Part shown: in pieces, positions 10,766 through 44,706 of the stretch
Layout of the letters: each line of letters starts with the position of its first letter
How positions within the stretch are numbered: position 1 is the first letter of the stretch
Source: a virus
Lineage: Duplodnaviria; Caudoviricetes
Direction: 5' to 3' (one strand)
Length of the DNA stretch: 64,000 nt
IMG/VR virus record: IMGVR_UViG_3300027759_003166
Position numbers and translations under genes: made by a program
The notes under the pieces: generated by a model
What the model was told of the DNA's origin: nothing
What the model saw: only the letters and a program-made list of their open reading frames with translations
The model's database searches: none

Positions 10766-12187
10766 TTACAGATCGTAGCGCGGAACTAGTACAGTCTTAC
10801 GCATGATGCCTTCTGGAGTGAATTGTTCAACATCCGCACCTAGCAAGCTAGCCATGATTGCTGGACTAAATCCACTTACAAGAGCGGCACCGCTCTTATC
10901 TGCCGCAACTGGTACGTTACCAGAACTGTTTAGGTTCCAGAAAACAACCTGTGGACAAGTGTATCCGGCTGCTTCAAACTTGCGTTCGATCATTTCCATC
11001 GCACTGTCATCGTGGCGAACACAGGCGTTAAATTGCATGTCGCTCAAGATCAAAACCATTGCTGGCATATCACTTTGAGGAGCATTGCCCTTAACTGCTA
11101 CACTTAGAATCTTTTCAAATGCTGCATGTAGATTTGTGCTCATACCCCAGTCGCTCTTGACCATTTGATTCATCTTTTGGACAATGTCGCCCCGAAGAGT
11201 CATCAATTGTGGCTTGTCACTGAATGTCAAGAAAGTGTCCTTGAACACACCCTTGTTCTTATCAGCCAAGTACAAGCCAAGGCTAACAGAAATATCCATA
11301 CAGGTAACACTACCCTTACCGCCCGCCGCACAACTCATAGAGCCGCTTACGTCTACTAGTGGTAGGATGCTAGCATCTCCAACGTAGTTTGGCAAGGCGT
11401 TCCATTGTGCAGTGATGTGATCCAATTCTGTCTTAGACAAAGTCGGACGCATGTATGCGTAAGCATTAACCAGTCCCTTCAACACATCGTGTGGGAAAAT
11501 AGCGTTAGCATTAACCTTCACACCTGCTTCGCCCTTGACCAGTGCAGCCACGTACTCAGCAAACTTAGGAGTGTGACGTCCAAAAGCCTTCTTGTAGTTA
11601 CGTGATGCCACGCTAGGTACGTGGTTGAAGTTGATGTTGTCCCAGTCATTGGCACACATTTGTGTTTCAACAACCTTGGTCAAAGCCACAAGACTCTTAC
11701 GGTAGAACTTTGGGCTCATACCGAAGAACTCACGGACTTCTGCTGCGATCTTGCCCTTACGTGGAGTCCACTTGGCAGCAAGGCCGTTACGAGCACGTAG
11801 AGCATCGCCCAACATGGTGTAAGCAGCAGCCTTCAATACAGGAGTAGTGAAGACAAAGATGTCATCCCAACGACCTACTTCAGGTACCTTCTTCAGCAAA
11901 GCCAAAGCGGCATCTGGGTCAGTCTTTTCTAGATGTACCAGAATTGAACGGAACAATTCCCGTTCGCCCGCTCCACCACGGACATCACGTGCCCATTGTG
12001 CGATACGTAGAGCCAAGTCGAAGTTTTCAACATAGGCCGCAGTAAATGCGGGTACAATGTTCTTACCACGGCTTGCGCCGATGTTGTAGAACAGATCAAC
12101 ACACTTGTTAGCGGTTGATTCACAAGCCTTCATACCATTAGCGGTACGGGCTTCTTGGTTAGCGATTGCGGTTACGAATGCGTTCAT
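10766..12187 (-). CDS. TROVE/Ro60-like protein with a C-terminal vWA domain (DUF2828 type)
   Basis: ARDVRGGAGER, VGRWDD, AAKWTPR; MIDAS DVSGSM; LILSDMQF; VVFWNL. Confidence 0.85.
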   Translation of the reverse strand: MNAFVTAIANQEARTANGMKACESTANKCVDLFYNIGASRGKNIVPAFTAAYVENFDLALRIAQWARDVRGGAGERELFRSILVHLEKTDPDAALALLKKVPEVGRWDDIFVFTTPVLKAAAYTMLGDALRARNGLAAKWTPRKGKIAAEVREFFGMSPKFYRKSLVALTKVVETQMCANDWDNINFNHVPSVASRNYKKAFGRHTPKFAEYVAALVKGEAGVKVNANAIFPHDVLKGLVNAYAYMRPTLSKTELDHITAQWNALPNYVGDASILPLVDVSGSMSCAAGGKGSVTCMDISVSLGLYLADKNKGVFKDTFLTFSDKPQLMTLRGDIVQKMNQMVKSDWGMSTNLHAAFEKILSVAVKGNAPQSDMPAMVLILSDMQFNACVRHDDSAMEMIERKFEAAGYTCPQVVFWNLNSSGNVPVAADKSGAALVSGFSPAIMASLLGADVEQFTPEGIMRKTVLVPRYDL

Positions 12188-15554: not shown

Positions 15555-16217
15555 TTATTTTCTAATACAAATTAGATCACTTTCACCAAAGGGATGCGGA
15601 TCTCTTGTTTTAAGAAATTCTGTTTCAAACCCTTGTTGATGGATCCATGATTCAAGATCACTTTTTGGAGCGTGACCCTTATAGTAAGGTTTTAATGCAG
15701 CTTCTGTATGCATTAGTTTAACATCATCGATGAATTTCCCCATACCTTGCAATGCTTTTAATTCATTACCTTGTACATCCATCCAAACAGCATCTACCTT
15801 ATCGACACCAATTTCTGTTAAAACATCATCTATACGTCTTGCTCTAATGCCGGATAATTTTTGAAAGGTACATGGTCTGTGTCCATTCTGCCATCCTGCA
15901 TCTAAGAAATCCTCTGCTGGTTCTAAAATAGAGGATGCACCAACATTTTCATTAACTATCCAAAAATCTACAATATCTTCTTTATCATTACAGGCATATT
16001 CATATACCTCAATGTTAGGATAATTTTTTCCTGCTGCTACACAAATAGGAAACTGATTAGGATTTGGTTCAAATGCAATTATTCTAGTATTAGGAAATGC
16101 CTCAGACATCTGTACACTTTCTTCTAGGTCTCTGCTACCTACATCTAAAATAACTTGTGGGCCTTGATTTCCATAAATTTCTTTTAGTTGTTCTATAAAA
16201 TCACCTGCTACTGCCAT
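15555..16217 (-). CDS. FkbM family methyltransferase
   Basis: ILDVGS, AFEPNP, VWMDVQGNELKALQG. Confidence 0.85.
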   Translation of the reverse strand: MAVAGDFIEQLKEIYGNQGPQVILDVGSRDLEESVQMSEAFPNTRIIAFEPNPNQFPICVAAGKNYPNIEVYEYACNDKEDIVDFWIVNENVGASSILEPAEDFLDAGWQNGHRPCTFQKLSGIRARRIDDVLTEIGVDKVDAVWMDVQGNELKALQGMGKFIDDVKLMHTEAALKPYYKGHAPKSDLESWIHQQGFETEFLKTRDPHPFGESDLICIRK

Positions 16218-17278: not shown

Positions 17279-17461
17279 TTTTTTCTTTTGAGGAAGTCCA
17301 CCTTTGGACCACTCTGTATTTTCGTATATTGCTAACTCATCTTTTGATATTCGTTTAGCAATAATACCATTGTTTATTAATATTGTTCCTATATTAGCCT
17401 CTGCTACTAGGGATACATATATTTGTTTTATGCAGGTTCTACAAGAAAATTCTTGTACCAT
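17264..17461 (-). CDS. Hypothetical protein
   Basis: 65-aa ORF with a CxxC motif; overlaps neighbours slightly. Confidence 0.4.
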   Translation of the reverse strand: MVQEFSCRTCIKQIYVSLVAEANIGTILINNGIIAKRISKDELAIYENTEWSKGGLPQKKKGSLV

Positions 17462-18087
17462 TCTGCTTCTGTTAACATTTCAACAATTTTATAATTATTA
17501 TTGTTTATCCAACTGTCAAACTCATTGAGATTTGAATTACTCACTTCTACAAACAATAAAGGTCTACATCTTGCTATAGTATCAGCAAGTCCAATGAGTA
17601 CATCCATTTCCATGCCTTCTACATCAATTTTAATCAAATCAATTTTTTTATTATAAAATAAGGCATCGCCTGGTACTTGAGGAATACCCGATATCATCCC
17701 TTGATCTTTTAAACTTGTTGCACCTAAATTATCGTTAAACATTTCTCGAATGCCTGAAAACCCAAATCTAGAACCCATTGCTAGACCTAGAAAATCTATG
17801 TTAACGGATTTGCAATAATTCAATGCTATATTTTGTAATAGTAATTTATAGCTCTGTGCTATTGGCTCAATGACAATTATTTCTTTTGGATTCAGATACC
17901 AATCAAAAAATATAGTGTGATTACCCACATTTGCCCCAACATCTACAATTGTAAGATCTGGAGGAATATATTTTATTAGTTTATCCAATTCATCTCGTTC
18001 ATAAAATTCACATTTAAGATGATGACGTTGAATAGTATCATTACCATTATCTACCATAAATTTTAATTTTCTCATATATGCTTTCAT
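17428..18087 (-). CDS. FkbM family methyltransferase
   Basis: VDVGANVGNHT, IEP, IKIDVEGMEMDVLIG. Confidence 0.9.
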   Translation of the reverse strand: MKAYMRKLKFMVDNGNDTIQRHHLKCEFYERDELDKLIKYIPPDLTIVDVGANVGNHTIFFDWYLNPKEIIVIEPIAQSYKLLLQNIALNYCKSVNIDFLGLAMGSRFGFSGIREMFNDNLGATSLKDQGMISGIPQVPGDALFYNKKIDLIKIDVEGMEMDVLIGLADTIARCRPLLFVEVSNSNLNEFDSWINNNNYKIVEMLTEAEWYKNFLVEPA

Positions 18088-19991: not shown

Positions 19992-20066
19992 TGGCAGGGA
20001 CTGAAGGTAACGCTCCTTCTCACCCAGTTTCAAAGACTGGTATCTGCTCTTATCGATTTAATCCCT
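19992..20066 (-). tRNA. trnQ: tRNA-Gln(UUG), atypical
   Basis: CCAGU-CUUUGAA-ACUGG, G73; T loop AGCGUUA, A8. Confidence 0.75.
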
Positions 20067-20971: not shown

Positions 20972-20979
20972 AAAATTGT

Positions 20980-21035
20980 TACACACTCCCGCTACGCTTT
21001 TTGACGCGATTCAAAGTCGCGAAAGAGAATGTGTA
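20980..21035 (-). ncRNA. Family-B-like short element B6
   Basis: UACACAUUCUC/GGGAGUGUGUA 11-bp stem with a CGCGA/UCGCG hairpin inside. Confidence 0.45.
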
Positions 21036-21135
21036 TATTAAAACATACTAATGAAATTGCACTACCTCAGTTTCACGCTGAGTTACCAGTAGTCACGGAG
21101 GCATTGTCCTCCTGCAAATAGTATGCTTTAATATG
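21034..21135 (-). ncRNA. Family-B long-stem RNA B5
   Basis: CAUAUUAAAGCAUACUA/UAGUAUGUUUUAAUAUA; internal GGAGG/CCUCC, ACUAC/GUAGU and CUCAG/CUGAG helices. Confidence 0.65.
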
Positions 21136-21239
21136 ACGAATTTTTTTATCTACAAGAAGATAATCCATCCTCGTCACCGCCCGTTTACCCCATGTTTATA
21201 GTGCAGGGTGTGGTCCTCGTTACCACATATTCACACTCG

Positions 21240-21274
21240 AAAAGCAAAAACCCCAGGGTGTTTAGTCCTAGGGT
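21240..21274 (-). terminator. Attenuator terminator upstream of the tRNA operon
   Basis: ACCCUAGG/CCUGGGGU stem followed by UUUUGCUUUU. Confidence 0.8.
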
Positions 21275-21299
21275 CCTTTGGAGTTAGTGTGTAGTTGTA

Positions 21300-21443
21300 T
21301 TACACTCTGGTCTCCTGGGACCCCTGGCTAATATAGCCCTCTGGTGTGCGATCATTAGATAGACTATCAAACGCCAACCAGCATGAGGGCATCTGCCCTA
21401 ATTTGGCTATCGTATGTTTATAGTTTCTAACTGCTGATTGCAT
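21300..21443 (-). CDS. 47-aa leader peptide containing all 20 amino acids
   Basis: MQSAVRNYKHTIAKLGQMPSCWLAFDSLSNDRTPEGYISQGSQETRV; codons 39-42 are complementary to the terminator 5' strand. Confidence 0.7.
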   Translation of the reverse strand: MQSAVRNYKHTIAKLGQMPSCWLAFDSLSNDRTPEGYISQGSQETRV

Positions 21444-21500
21444 TTTACTTTCCAATTTACCTTTAAATTACTACACGGCATTATTGCTGTGTATGTATGA

Positions 21501-42804: not shown

Positions 42805-44706
42805 TTATACAGTCTCTTGAACGTCGGCTGCAACCACGCCATCTTCCGCATCTTTTTTAGCCTGTTCTTCAGCTTTTTTAGCTGCTTCTTCGGCTTCGTG
42901 CTTCTTGGCTGTAATTGGACCCATTGCTTGATAAAGTTTTGGAACGCTGTCTTGAATGATTTTAGGATCATCACCTTTGATAGCATCACGAATTGCCTGT
43001 GCTGCATCGTCGGCATTGGCCTTTTCTTCTTCAGTAACTTGATCACCAAACTTATCAATATCTGCTTGGAATTCATTTAGGGTAGATTCTGCGCTATTAC
43101 GTGCTTCAATAAGCTCACGTAGTTTCTTATCTGATTCGGCATTAGCTTCGGCGTCTTGAACCATACGTTCAATTTCGTCTTTGCTAAGTCCGCTATCGGA
43201 TTTGATAGTGATCTTATTTTCTTGGCCGGTGCCTTGATCCTTGGCACTAATATTCATAATACCATTGGCGTCAATATCCAAAGTAACTTCAATTTGCGGA
43301 GTACCTTTACGTGCTGGAGGAATTCCACTTAATTTAAATTCACCAAGCAATTTATTGTATTGAACAAAATCACGCTCTCCCTGGAATACTTTAATATCCA
43401 CAGCAGGTTGATTGTCTTCGGCTGTACTAAACACTTGACTATGTTTGGTAGGAATGGTTGTATTCTTTTGAATCAACTTAGCCATTACACCGCCCTGTGT
43501 TTCAATACCAAGACTTAGTGGAGTAACGTCCAGCAATAGAACGTCTGTACGTCCACCACCTAATACGTCACCCTGGATAGCAGCACCAGCGGCAACTGCT
43601 TCGTCTGGGTTAACATCCTTACGTGGTGCCTTGCCGAATAGTTTCTCAACTGTTTCGATAACCTTAGGCATACGTGTCATACCACCGACTAAGATAACTT
43701 CGTCGATGTCGCTGGCAGTAACACCTGCATCTGCCATAGCAGTTTTGCAAGGCTCAATACTACGTTGGATCAACTCGTCAACAAGCTGTTCCAACTTCGC
43801 ACGAGTGATCTTAACATTCATATGTTTAGGACCACTTGCGTCTGCTGTGATGTAAGGCAAGTTAACATCTGTTTGTGCTGAACTTGACAATTCAATCTTA
43901 GCTTTCTCAGCAGCTTCTTTCAAACGCTGGAGTGCCAACATATCCTTCTTAAGATCAACGCCGTTGTCTTTCTTGAATTCATCGACCAAGAAATCCATAA
44001 TACGTTGGTCAAAGTCTTCACCACCTAAGAATGTATCACCGTTAGTAGATAGAACTTCAATTTGTTTGTCGCCATCAACGTTGGCAATTTCAATAATAGA
44101 TACGTCAAATGTACCACCACCTAGGTCATAGACAGCAATCTTACGATCACGCTTGTCTGCTTTATCCATACCATAGGCAAGAGCAGCGGCAGTTGGTTCG
44201 TTGATAATACGTAGAACTTCAAGTCCTGCGATTTTACCAGCATCTTTAGTTGCTTGACGTTGCTGGTCATTGAAGTAAGCAGGTACGGTAATAACTGCCT
44301 GTGTAACTTCATGTCCAAGATAGTCTTCAGCTGTGAGTTTCATCTTACGAAGAACTTCGGCTGAAATTTGTGGAGGGGCAAGTTCTTGATCATTTGCACT
44401 AACCCAAGCATCACCATTGCTGGCTTCGATGATTTTGTAGGGCATTAGATCAATGTCCTTCTGCACAGCTTGTTCTTTAAACTTACGTCCAATTAGACGC
44501 TTGGCTGCATAGATTGTATTTTTTGGATTAGTAACTGCCTGGCGTTTTGCACTGGCACCTACAAGGATTTCATCGTTAGCATAGGCAATAATACTAGGAG
44601 TAGTTCTTGCACCTTCGCTGTTTTCGATTACTTTGGGGATACCGTTTTCAATAACGGCTACACATGAATTGGTTGTACCGAGATCGATACCGATTACTTT
44701 ACTCAT
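42805..44706 (-). CDS. dnaK: Chaperone DnaK (Hsp70)
   Basis: [34 protein letters not shown]. Confidence 0.98.

Follow-up and report, generated by a model that had tools for sequence, protein, structure and literature searches.

The leader described here lies on the minus strand of a 64,000-nt stretch of viral DNA (the whole stretch analysed, hereafter the window), with its promoters, its short open reading frame (ORF), its RNA helices and its terminator all on that strand, ahead of a co-oriented tRNA array (Table 1). The window codes for DnaK, a TROVE/DUF2828 protein, FkbM methyltransferases and a glycosyltransferase block, and on the strength of these encoded proteins it is likely to be part of a giant phage genome. 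Searches of GenBank phages with the leader DNA, the leader peptide and two neighbouring proteins gave no match except to the tRNA-Tyr gene; near-identical DNA was found across many lake and freshwater metagenomes, and related contigs are numerous among the uncultured phages of IMG/VR. We collected IMG/VR relatives via the neighbouring GT2 gene, a gene within the array and the leader peptide itself, and a dozen of them share 70–88% nucleotide identity over the leader. Two homologue sets are used below: a close set of 40 distinct leaders, available as DNA, from related uncultured phage contigs; and a distant set from a profile search of 1.84 billion representatives, which returned 116 small homologues, 112 of them remaining after trimming to the family methionine (each representing a cluster at 50% identity). 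Exactly one leader occurs in each of five long records, three of which are 97–100% complete at 338–364 kb.

Table 1. Features of the leader, the tRNA array and selected genes in the window (positions in nt of the window; sequences given as RNA where they form helices).
Feature	Position	Strand	Remarks
Promoter P1 (TTGACA-17-TACAAT)	21614-21586	-	11/12 sigma-70 consensus; kept in relatives
Promoter P2 (TTGACA-17-TATAAT)	21529-21501	-	12/12 sigma-70 consensus; predicted start near 21494; kept in relatives
5'-terminal hairpin of promoter-P2 transcript, ACACAGCA/UGCCGUGU	21472..21493	-	In predicted MFE fold
Leader ORF, 47 codons + UAA, product MQSAVRNYKHTIAKLGQMPSCWLAFDSLSNDRTPEGYISQGSQETRV	21443-21300 (ATG 21443; TAA 21302-21300)	-	20 amino acids, 37 distinct codons
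Near-invariant block GAU CGC ACA CCA GAG (DRTPE)	21339..21353	-	Synonymous variation only (GAU CGY ACA CCR GAR) across 40 leaders
Strand A (GGGGUCC, codons 40-42), 5' strand of antiterminator helix P1	21318..21324	-	100% paired with strand B in 37 distinct sequences
Antiterminator helix P2	GGAG 21315-21312 with CUCC 21283-21280	-	Compensatory changes
Antiterminator helix P3, containing the stop codon	GUGUA 21305-21301 with UACAC 21293-21289	-	Compensatory changes
Strand B GGACCCUAGG, common to antiterminator helix P1 and terminator	21267..21276	-	A:B overlaps terminator at 21274-21270
Intrinsic terminator, ACCCUAGG with CCUGGGGU (strand C), tail UUUUGCUUUU	21274-21267 with 21257-21250; tail to 21240	-	8-bp G+C-rich stem, 9-nt loop
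tRNA array, co-oriented, 28 tRNAs, 19 amino acids, interspersed genes	20971 (tRNA-Tyr) to 12531	-	Default ARAGORN; Rfam confirms 27
Candidate tRNA-Gln(UUG), atypical	19992-20066	-	Relaxed ARAGORN threshold only; not found by Rfam
Consensus-like sigma-70 promoters within array	18338-18310, 16267-16240, 15321-15293, 14773-14745, 12432-12404	-	11-12 of 12 matches
Two FkbM-type methyltransferases	15555-16217, 17428-18087	-	Inside tRNA array
TROVE/DUF2828 (Ro60-like) protein	10766-12187	-	Just beyond distal tRNA array end
Full-length DnaK/Hsp70 homologue	42805-44706	-	Elsewhere in window

An initial reading made from the sequence alone (the sequence-only reading) had placed tandem promoters upstream of the 47-codon ORF, and this held at the sigma-70 matches listed in Table 1. 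The ORF begins 51 nt past the predicted start of promoter P2. As judged by eye, the stem of the predicted 5'-terminal hairpin is maintained in relatives with altered sequence; it is absent from relatives with a near-leaderless mRNA, which is predicted in seven cases (L050, L051, L058, L059, L060, L061, L072) where the -10 box lies ~10 nt upstream of the ATG. One lake metatranscriptome run yielded a single 275-nt contig identical to 21214–21488, the only coverage across the 1.3 kb compared, which spans approximately from the predicted start of promoter P2 (it begins at 21488) to just beyond the terminator. At most this hints at leader expression, since an assembled contig does not establish where an RNA starts or stops, and the RNA library may have contained residual DNA. 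Two further RNA runs, X16 and X17, covered the entire stretch and its flanks and were uninformative on transcripts. As a separate observation on the minus strand, the A-rich ribosome-binding region GAAAGUAAAA (21447–21456) pairs in the MFE fold with the terminator U-tail UUUUUGCUUUUC (21240–21250), and the window and L018 differ there by compensatory changes (G-C to A-U, U-G to C-G) seen by eye only. Such a pairing, resting on a predicted fold and these by-eye changes, might conceivably hide the start site in terminated RNA; it would not apply to the near-leaderless relatives.

The sequence-only reading had also described the downstream operon as encoding tRNAs for all 20 amino acids, and this held in part. 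Default ARAGORN finds 19 amino acids represented in the window, and glutamine has only the atypical candidate of Table 1, which combines a 7-bp acceptor stem, a 5-bp anticodon stem and an encoded CCA with a non-canonical T loop and a weak, atypical D arm; the arrays behind the leader in the five long records hold 26–41 tRNAs on one strand and cover all 20. Across relatives, co-oriented tRNAs start 270–1240 nt after the leader ORF in 36 of 39, the remaining three having no tRNA in the available DNA, two of them truncated by contig ends. No promoter-like site was found on the minus strand between the terminator and 18338, and therefore the first 12 tRNAs, Tyr to Ser(UGA) (20971–19069), depend on read-through. 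None of the five promoters inside the array has a leader ORF behind it. These internal promoters could express distal tRNAs independently, and it is possible that the switch is not the sole control there; dependence of the whole array on the switch is inferred.

Several other elements accompany the junction between leader and array. A second conserved non-coding element, ACGAGGACC...AAACGGGCGGUGACGAGGAUGG...UAUUAAAGCA (21125–21237, minus strand), is situated between the terminator and tRNA-Tyr; almost every relative retains it, and Rfam gives no match to it. A small ORF intervenes between the terminator and this element in many relatives. A variable insert (20985–21135, minus strand) is flanked by the conserved arms UAUUAAAGCA and UGUUUUAAUAUACACA, its interior being wholly different among relatives, and by analogy it resembles a cassette in a long-stem RNA. 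Relatives including L001, L032 and L056 carry, 67–90 nt past the leader stop, a conserved ORF of 50–58 amino acids with its own Shine-Dalgarno sequence. This post-terminator ORF, with the motif ..EW..HTLTPEQ..KLI..K.ERA, is absent from the window, and we infer that its expression would require read-through.

Comparison of the 40 distinct close leaders revealed several marks of a maintained reading frame: firstly, all complete homologues share the same ATG and the same stop position; secondly, ORF lengths range from 43 to 55 codons, with 10 different lengths and every indel frame-preserving; thirdly, the other two frames are closed, with means of 2.2 and 4.4 stops; and fourthly, 39% of single-base codon differences are synonymous as against 23% expected. 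Entropy per codon position is almost flat (0.98/0.91/1.02), so that classical coding periodicity is weak, a pattern that may reflect a variable peptide part in which residue identity matters little, together with constraints acting on the RNA. A more divergent leader in L007 (1611–1814, minus strand) has 67 codons, a distinct N-terminal half, NRTPE replacing DRTPE and no Trp, and retains the switch RNA. The ORF is conserved as an ORF; that it is translated is an inference.

These observations bear on a first rival explanation, that the leader is an untranslated structured small RNA with an incidental open frame. In its favour, the predicted MFE over the 523-nt leader has z = -4.7, and several blocks are strongly conserved in nucleotides. 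Against it stand the frame kept open across ten ORF lengths with start and stop in place and the other frames closed, the excess of synonymous changes, and the lack both of an Rfam match and of a robust consensus helix in codons 9–36, and we consider it all but excluded. An Rfam search of 20972–21500 with E up to 1 gave no family match, only a chance mir-644 hit on the opposite strand, and RNAalifold over codons 9–36 gave only six weak pairs; a short GGC/GCC hairpin in codons 16–20 shows covariation by eye only. With no match to RF00230, the specifier loop and T-box sequence of a T-box riboswitch were not found in the leader.

The composition of the encoded peptide is unusual. A recount upheld the statement of the sequence-only reading that the first 26 codons specify 19 amino acids and that all 20 are reached by codon 35, with 37 distinct codons among the 47; the residue completing the set is the Glu of DRTPE. 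Under the amino-acid composition of the window's long ORFs, the probability of all 20 in 35 codons is 0.2%, of at least 19 in 26 codons 0.05%, and of all 20 in 47 codons 3%. Taken alone, the composition of the window leader is thus unusual for a single sequence and not decisive. All 20 amino acids are present in 39 of the 40 close leaders (43–55 codons) and in 82 of the 112 distant ones; a further 28 of the distant leaders have 19, and the 30 incomplete ones lack one or two, most often Cys (13) or Val (7). The contigs with Cys-less leaders are just 2–8 kb long.

Completeness at this level far exceeds every null that we applied. Random peptides with the family composition contain all 20 in 4.7% of cases, those with the window proteome composition in 3.3%, and real 47-residue windows of this window's proteins in 2.1%; when residues were shuffled within alignment columns of the distant set, 23.3 ± 3.8 sequences stayed complete and none of 2000 shuffles gave more than 36, whereas the real set has 82. 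As a control family, the small ORF (41–58 amino acids) found behind the terminator in many relatives contains a mean of 16.6 different amino acids and is complete in 2 of 26 members. Counts of rare residues are under-dispersed while their positions wander: Cys has a mean of 1.05 and a variance of 0.30 spread over 19 columns, His a mean of 1.21 and a variance of 0.22 spread over 14. Cys occurs exactly once, at varying positions, in 38 of the 40 close leaders, and Cys, His, Phe, Tyr and internal Met all shift position yet persist, mostly one each, which we read as a rare residue lost at one site reappearing at another. All 40 close leaders contain an internal Met and both Ser codon boxes, and most contain both Leu boxes, both Arg boxes and AUA plus AUY for Ile. 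Together, the close and distant homologues, the nulls, the column shuffle, the under-dispersion and the control family show that the all-20 composition is under selection. The sequence-only reading had proposed to ask of homologous leaders whether this composition survives sequence drift, and it does, with rare residues relocating.

One part of the peptide behaves differently from the rest. Its core, AKQAG.MPS.W...DRTPE, is strongly conserved, and simple codon sensing does not account for this, which counts against our main reading, as do the incomplete distant leaders, the weak coding periodicity and the promoters inside the array. A nascent-peptide arrest element of the TnaC/SecM type would offer an account: the core from W22 to DRTPE would contact the exit tunnel, a ligand or factor would arrest the ribosome on the stop codon or close to it and so set termination, and the all-20 composition would be secondary. 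The core does keep its amino acids while its codons change synonymously, and DRTPE lies 12–16 residues from the C-terminus, the tunnel-constriction distance with the ribosome at the stop. This distance is that known for TnaC and SecM. No similarity to known arrest peptides was established, and the way rare residues move about within the variable N-terminal portion is left unexplained, so that we find arrest very unlikely as the primary explanation; it could coexist with an attenuator, for example by lengthening occupancy at the stop.

The RNA around the end of the ORF can form two alternative structures. In the window, CCAGGGGUCC (21327–21318, codons 39–42) pairs with strand B (21276–21267) at 9 of 10 positions, one G-U included, and strand B overlaps the 5' strand of the terminator, as the sequence-only reading had stated. 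Within this pairing, strands A and B form a 7-bp helix, P1, of the form NGGGUYC with GRACCCN, in which two pairs covary (G-C/A-U/G-U and C-G/U-A). Helix P1 is the base of a three-tier hairpin, reaching from strand A to strand B, that forms in all homologues with folding energies between -21 and -29 kcal/mol and holds the stop codon in its apical helix, P3, in each of them. Compensatory changes occur in all 11 pairs of helix P2, the short intervening helix and P3, the GGAG/CUCC of P2 being swapped in relatives for UUGG/CCAA, GGG/CCC or UGAA/UUCA. Over the whole antiterminator, 95% of cells are paired and 13 of 18 pairs are compensatory, values reached in 0 of 500 shuffles. The competing terminator is 99% paired in 37 distinct sequences, with compensatory changes in 3 of its 8 pairs; an automated scan missed it solely for its 9-nt loop, the loop limit being 8. 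Both helix statistics rest on a covariance-model alignment of 41 matches, which replaced two MAFFT alignments (A2 and A3) that had strand A out of register.

The strand common to both structures varies in step with both of its partners. The positions A[0]/B[6]/C[3] show the triplets G-C-G, A-U-A, A-U-G, G-U-A and G-U-G, and no mismatch. The covariation that the sequence-only reading had asked for in the antiterminator is therefore present, and extends to the terminator; two mutually exclusive helices that covary and share strand B are thus shown. Its other proposed competing helices, GCCCUC/GAGGGC and GGUC/GACC, gained no support as conserved elements: RNAalifold gave no more than the weak pairs mentioned above, and the GGUC/GACC or GUCC/GGAC hairpin varies. 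The conserved GGAG-like strand that a hairpin of this type would use is better explained as part of antiterminator helix P2. No conserved anti-antiterminator like the 1:2 helix of trp was found, the partners of strand A differing among homologues when the terminator is forced. Over full leaders the two folds differ by a mean of 2.4 kcal/mol, with A:B the minimum-energy fold in 32 of 40; they are nearly isoenergetic because going from one to the other swaps just P1 for the terminator and leaves P2 and P3 in place. Near-equal energies would fit a kinetic switch, an inference from predicted folds.

A referee might prefer an ordinary gene for a small phage protein, ended by its own terminator, in which the hairpin only stabilises the mRNA and the tRNAs are reached by unregulated, leaky read-through. 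The peptide is conserved, it is predicted as a gene in metagenomes, it has 116 small homologues, and small conserved ORFs are common in this region. At a plain 3' end one would not expect a conserved helix that vies with the gene's terminator for strand B and covaries three ways, the all-20 property is selected, and the first 12 tRNAs have no other promoter-like site; we regard this explanation, too, as very unlikely.

The element has four structural hallmarks of a leader-peptide attenuator, namely a leader ORF, an intrinsic terminator, a strand-sharing antiterminator and an overlap between ORF and switch. The correspondence between regulatory codons and gene products takes an unusual form, with leaders containing all 20 amino acids (39/40 and 82/112) and, in five relatives, tRNAs for all 20 behind them. 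We conclude that the element is likely (probability about 0.65) a ribosome-mediated transcription attenuator that heads a phage tRNA array and samples each amino acid mostly once; nothing in this has been shown experimentally. The pan-amino-acid attenuator put forward by the sequence-only reading is in this sense supported by comparison and mechanistically plausible, and its stall-induced read-through and anticodon-nuclease trigger remain inference. The direction of the switch, its physiological trigger and the role of the conserved core are likewise inferred, there being no bench data on translation, termination or the response to tRNAs.

In the mechanism we propose, host RNA polymerase would initiate at the two strong promoters and a ribosome would translate the 47-codon ORF. 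Strands A and B would form the three-tier antiterminator hairpin, with the stop codon at its tip, or else strand B would pair with strand C in the intrinsic terminator. A first ribosome keeping pace would cover strand A, P2 and half of P3 during synthesis of strand C, so that B:C would form and transcription would stop; with the ribosome on the last codons or the stop, strand B would remain free for strand C. A ribosome late at any upstream codon, or absent, would let A capture B before C is made, and polymerase would read through into the tRNA genes, in many relatives reaching a small protein gene first. As no conserved 1:2-type anti-antiterminator was found, an untranslated leader should read through rather than undergo super-attenuation, which is again an inference. 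The outcome would be negative feedback matching phage tRNA synthesis to current decoding capacity for all 20 amino-acid classes.

The geometry behind this scheme also holds its main internal tension. In homologues, strand A starts in codon 36–46 and is followed after 15–34 nt by the stop, which is separated from strand B by 17–30 nt (23 nt in the window), and B-to-C spacing is 19 nt. By the end of DRTPE, 29 of 40 leaders have used every amino acid, and 34 of 40 have done so ahead of strand A; in the exceptions, Val (five leaders) or Cys (one leader) is confined to the tail, which comprises strand A and what follows it. Stalling at a tail Val or Cys should favour termination, which argues against a strict any-codon model. 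The last class added is the Glu of DRTPE, whose single upstream codon lies 9–15 nt before strand A, and we infer that a ribosome stalled on it would only just leave strand A uncovered. The tail-only Val and Cys and this Glu position are the points that fit least well with a strict any-codon model.

A related alternative keeps the attenuator and changes what it senses. Here the signal would be general translation status (ribosome availability, transcription-translation coupling, host shut-off or poisons) and not particular tRNAs; the varied composition would merely be that of an "average" message, and the element would serve to time the tRNA and RNA-repair operon to the stage of infection. The architecture does answer any delay or absence of the lead ribosome, and the seven near-leaderless relatives would make the mode of initiation important. 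Moreover, leader codons are not specially matched to phage anticodons, showing no enrichment over ordinary genes in two genomes (0.80 vs 0.85; 0.85 vs 0.88), a result that also weighs against our main reading. This alternative leaves unexplained why Cys, His and internal Met are kept about once each while changing columns, and why full sets are so much more frequent than expected from composition, and we judge it unlikely.

The attenuator that we favour, sampling individual amino acids, resembles several known systems. Like the leaders of amino-acid operons (trpL, hisL, pheL, thrL, leuL and the multivalent ilvGMEDA), it has a short ORF preceding the regulated genes and a terminator 5' strand that alternatively pairs with a segment overlapping the ORF; in those leaders the position of the ribosome picks the fold and an upstream stall favours read-through, and the phage leader is alike in its proposed mechanism. 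Unlike the trpL and hisL type, it has no runs of regulatory codons and instead carries approximately one codon for each of the 20 amino acids. It also differs from amino-acid operon attenuators in being phage-borne, in preceding tRNAs rather than biosynthetic enzymes, in placing the stop codon in the antiterminator tip, and in lacking a detectable conserved 1:2-type anti-antiterminator. The Bacillus subtilis bmrB-bmrCD leader (PMC4191407) and the mef/mel and msrD leaders (PMC4335068) are ribosome-mediated attenuators sensing translation inhibitors, and in them, as proposed here, generic slowing of the ribosome on a short leader ORF leads to antitermination (PMC4191407, PMC4335068). The signal for those leaders is an antibiotic and their targets are resistance transporters or ABC-F factors, whereas the phage leader heads tRNAs. 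Antibiotic-sensing leaders are not known to have an all-20 composition, to control tRNA genes or to be related in sequence to the phage leader. T-box riboswitches similarly tie tRNA status to a choice between terminator and antiterminator in a leader RNA; they differ from the phage leader in binding one uncharged tRNA directly, untranslated, and in controlling synthetase or amino-acid genes. A full-text literature search of incomplete coverage turned up no account of a leader of this kind, nor of phage tRNA genes controlled by attenuation, and to our knowledge no leader-peptide attenuator senses beyond one amino acid or a small family, or controls anything other than amino-acid supply.

A bolder reading would make the element a phage homeostat for the whole decoding system, with the switch reading the slowest of 20 aminoacyl-tRNA supplies, such that depletion of any host tRNA would turn on the complete phage tRNA set and its RNA-repair neighbours; host anticodon nucleases or infection-induced tRNA decay would, by inference, be examples of triggers. 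We place slightly more weight against this reading than for it, and were it true the element would be a sensor-coupled counter-defence. The attenuator itself, if confirmed, would be the first sensor to gauge decoding capacity in general and residue by residue, as well as the first described feedback control of tRNA genes via translation itself, and would explain how giant phages dose large tRNA sets. It also offers a compact and testable natural reporter of tRNA limitation, and it bears on why phages carry tRNAs at all, whether to match codon usage or to replace tRNAs destroyed by host defences.
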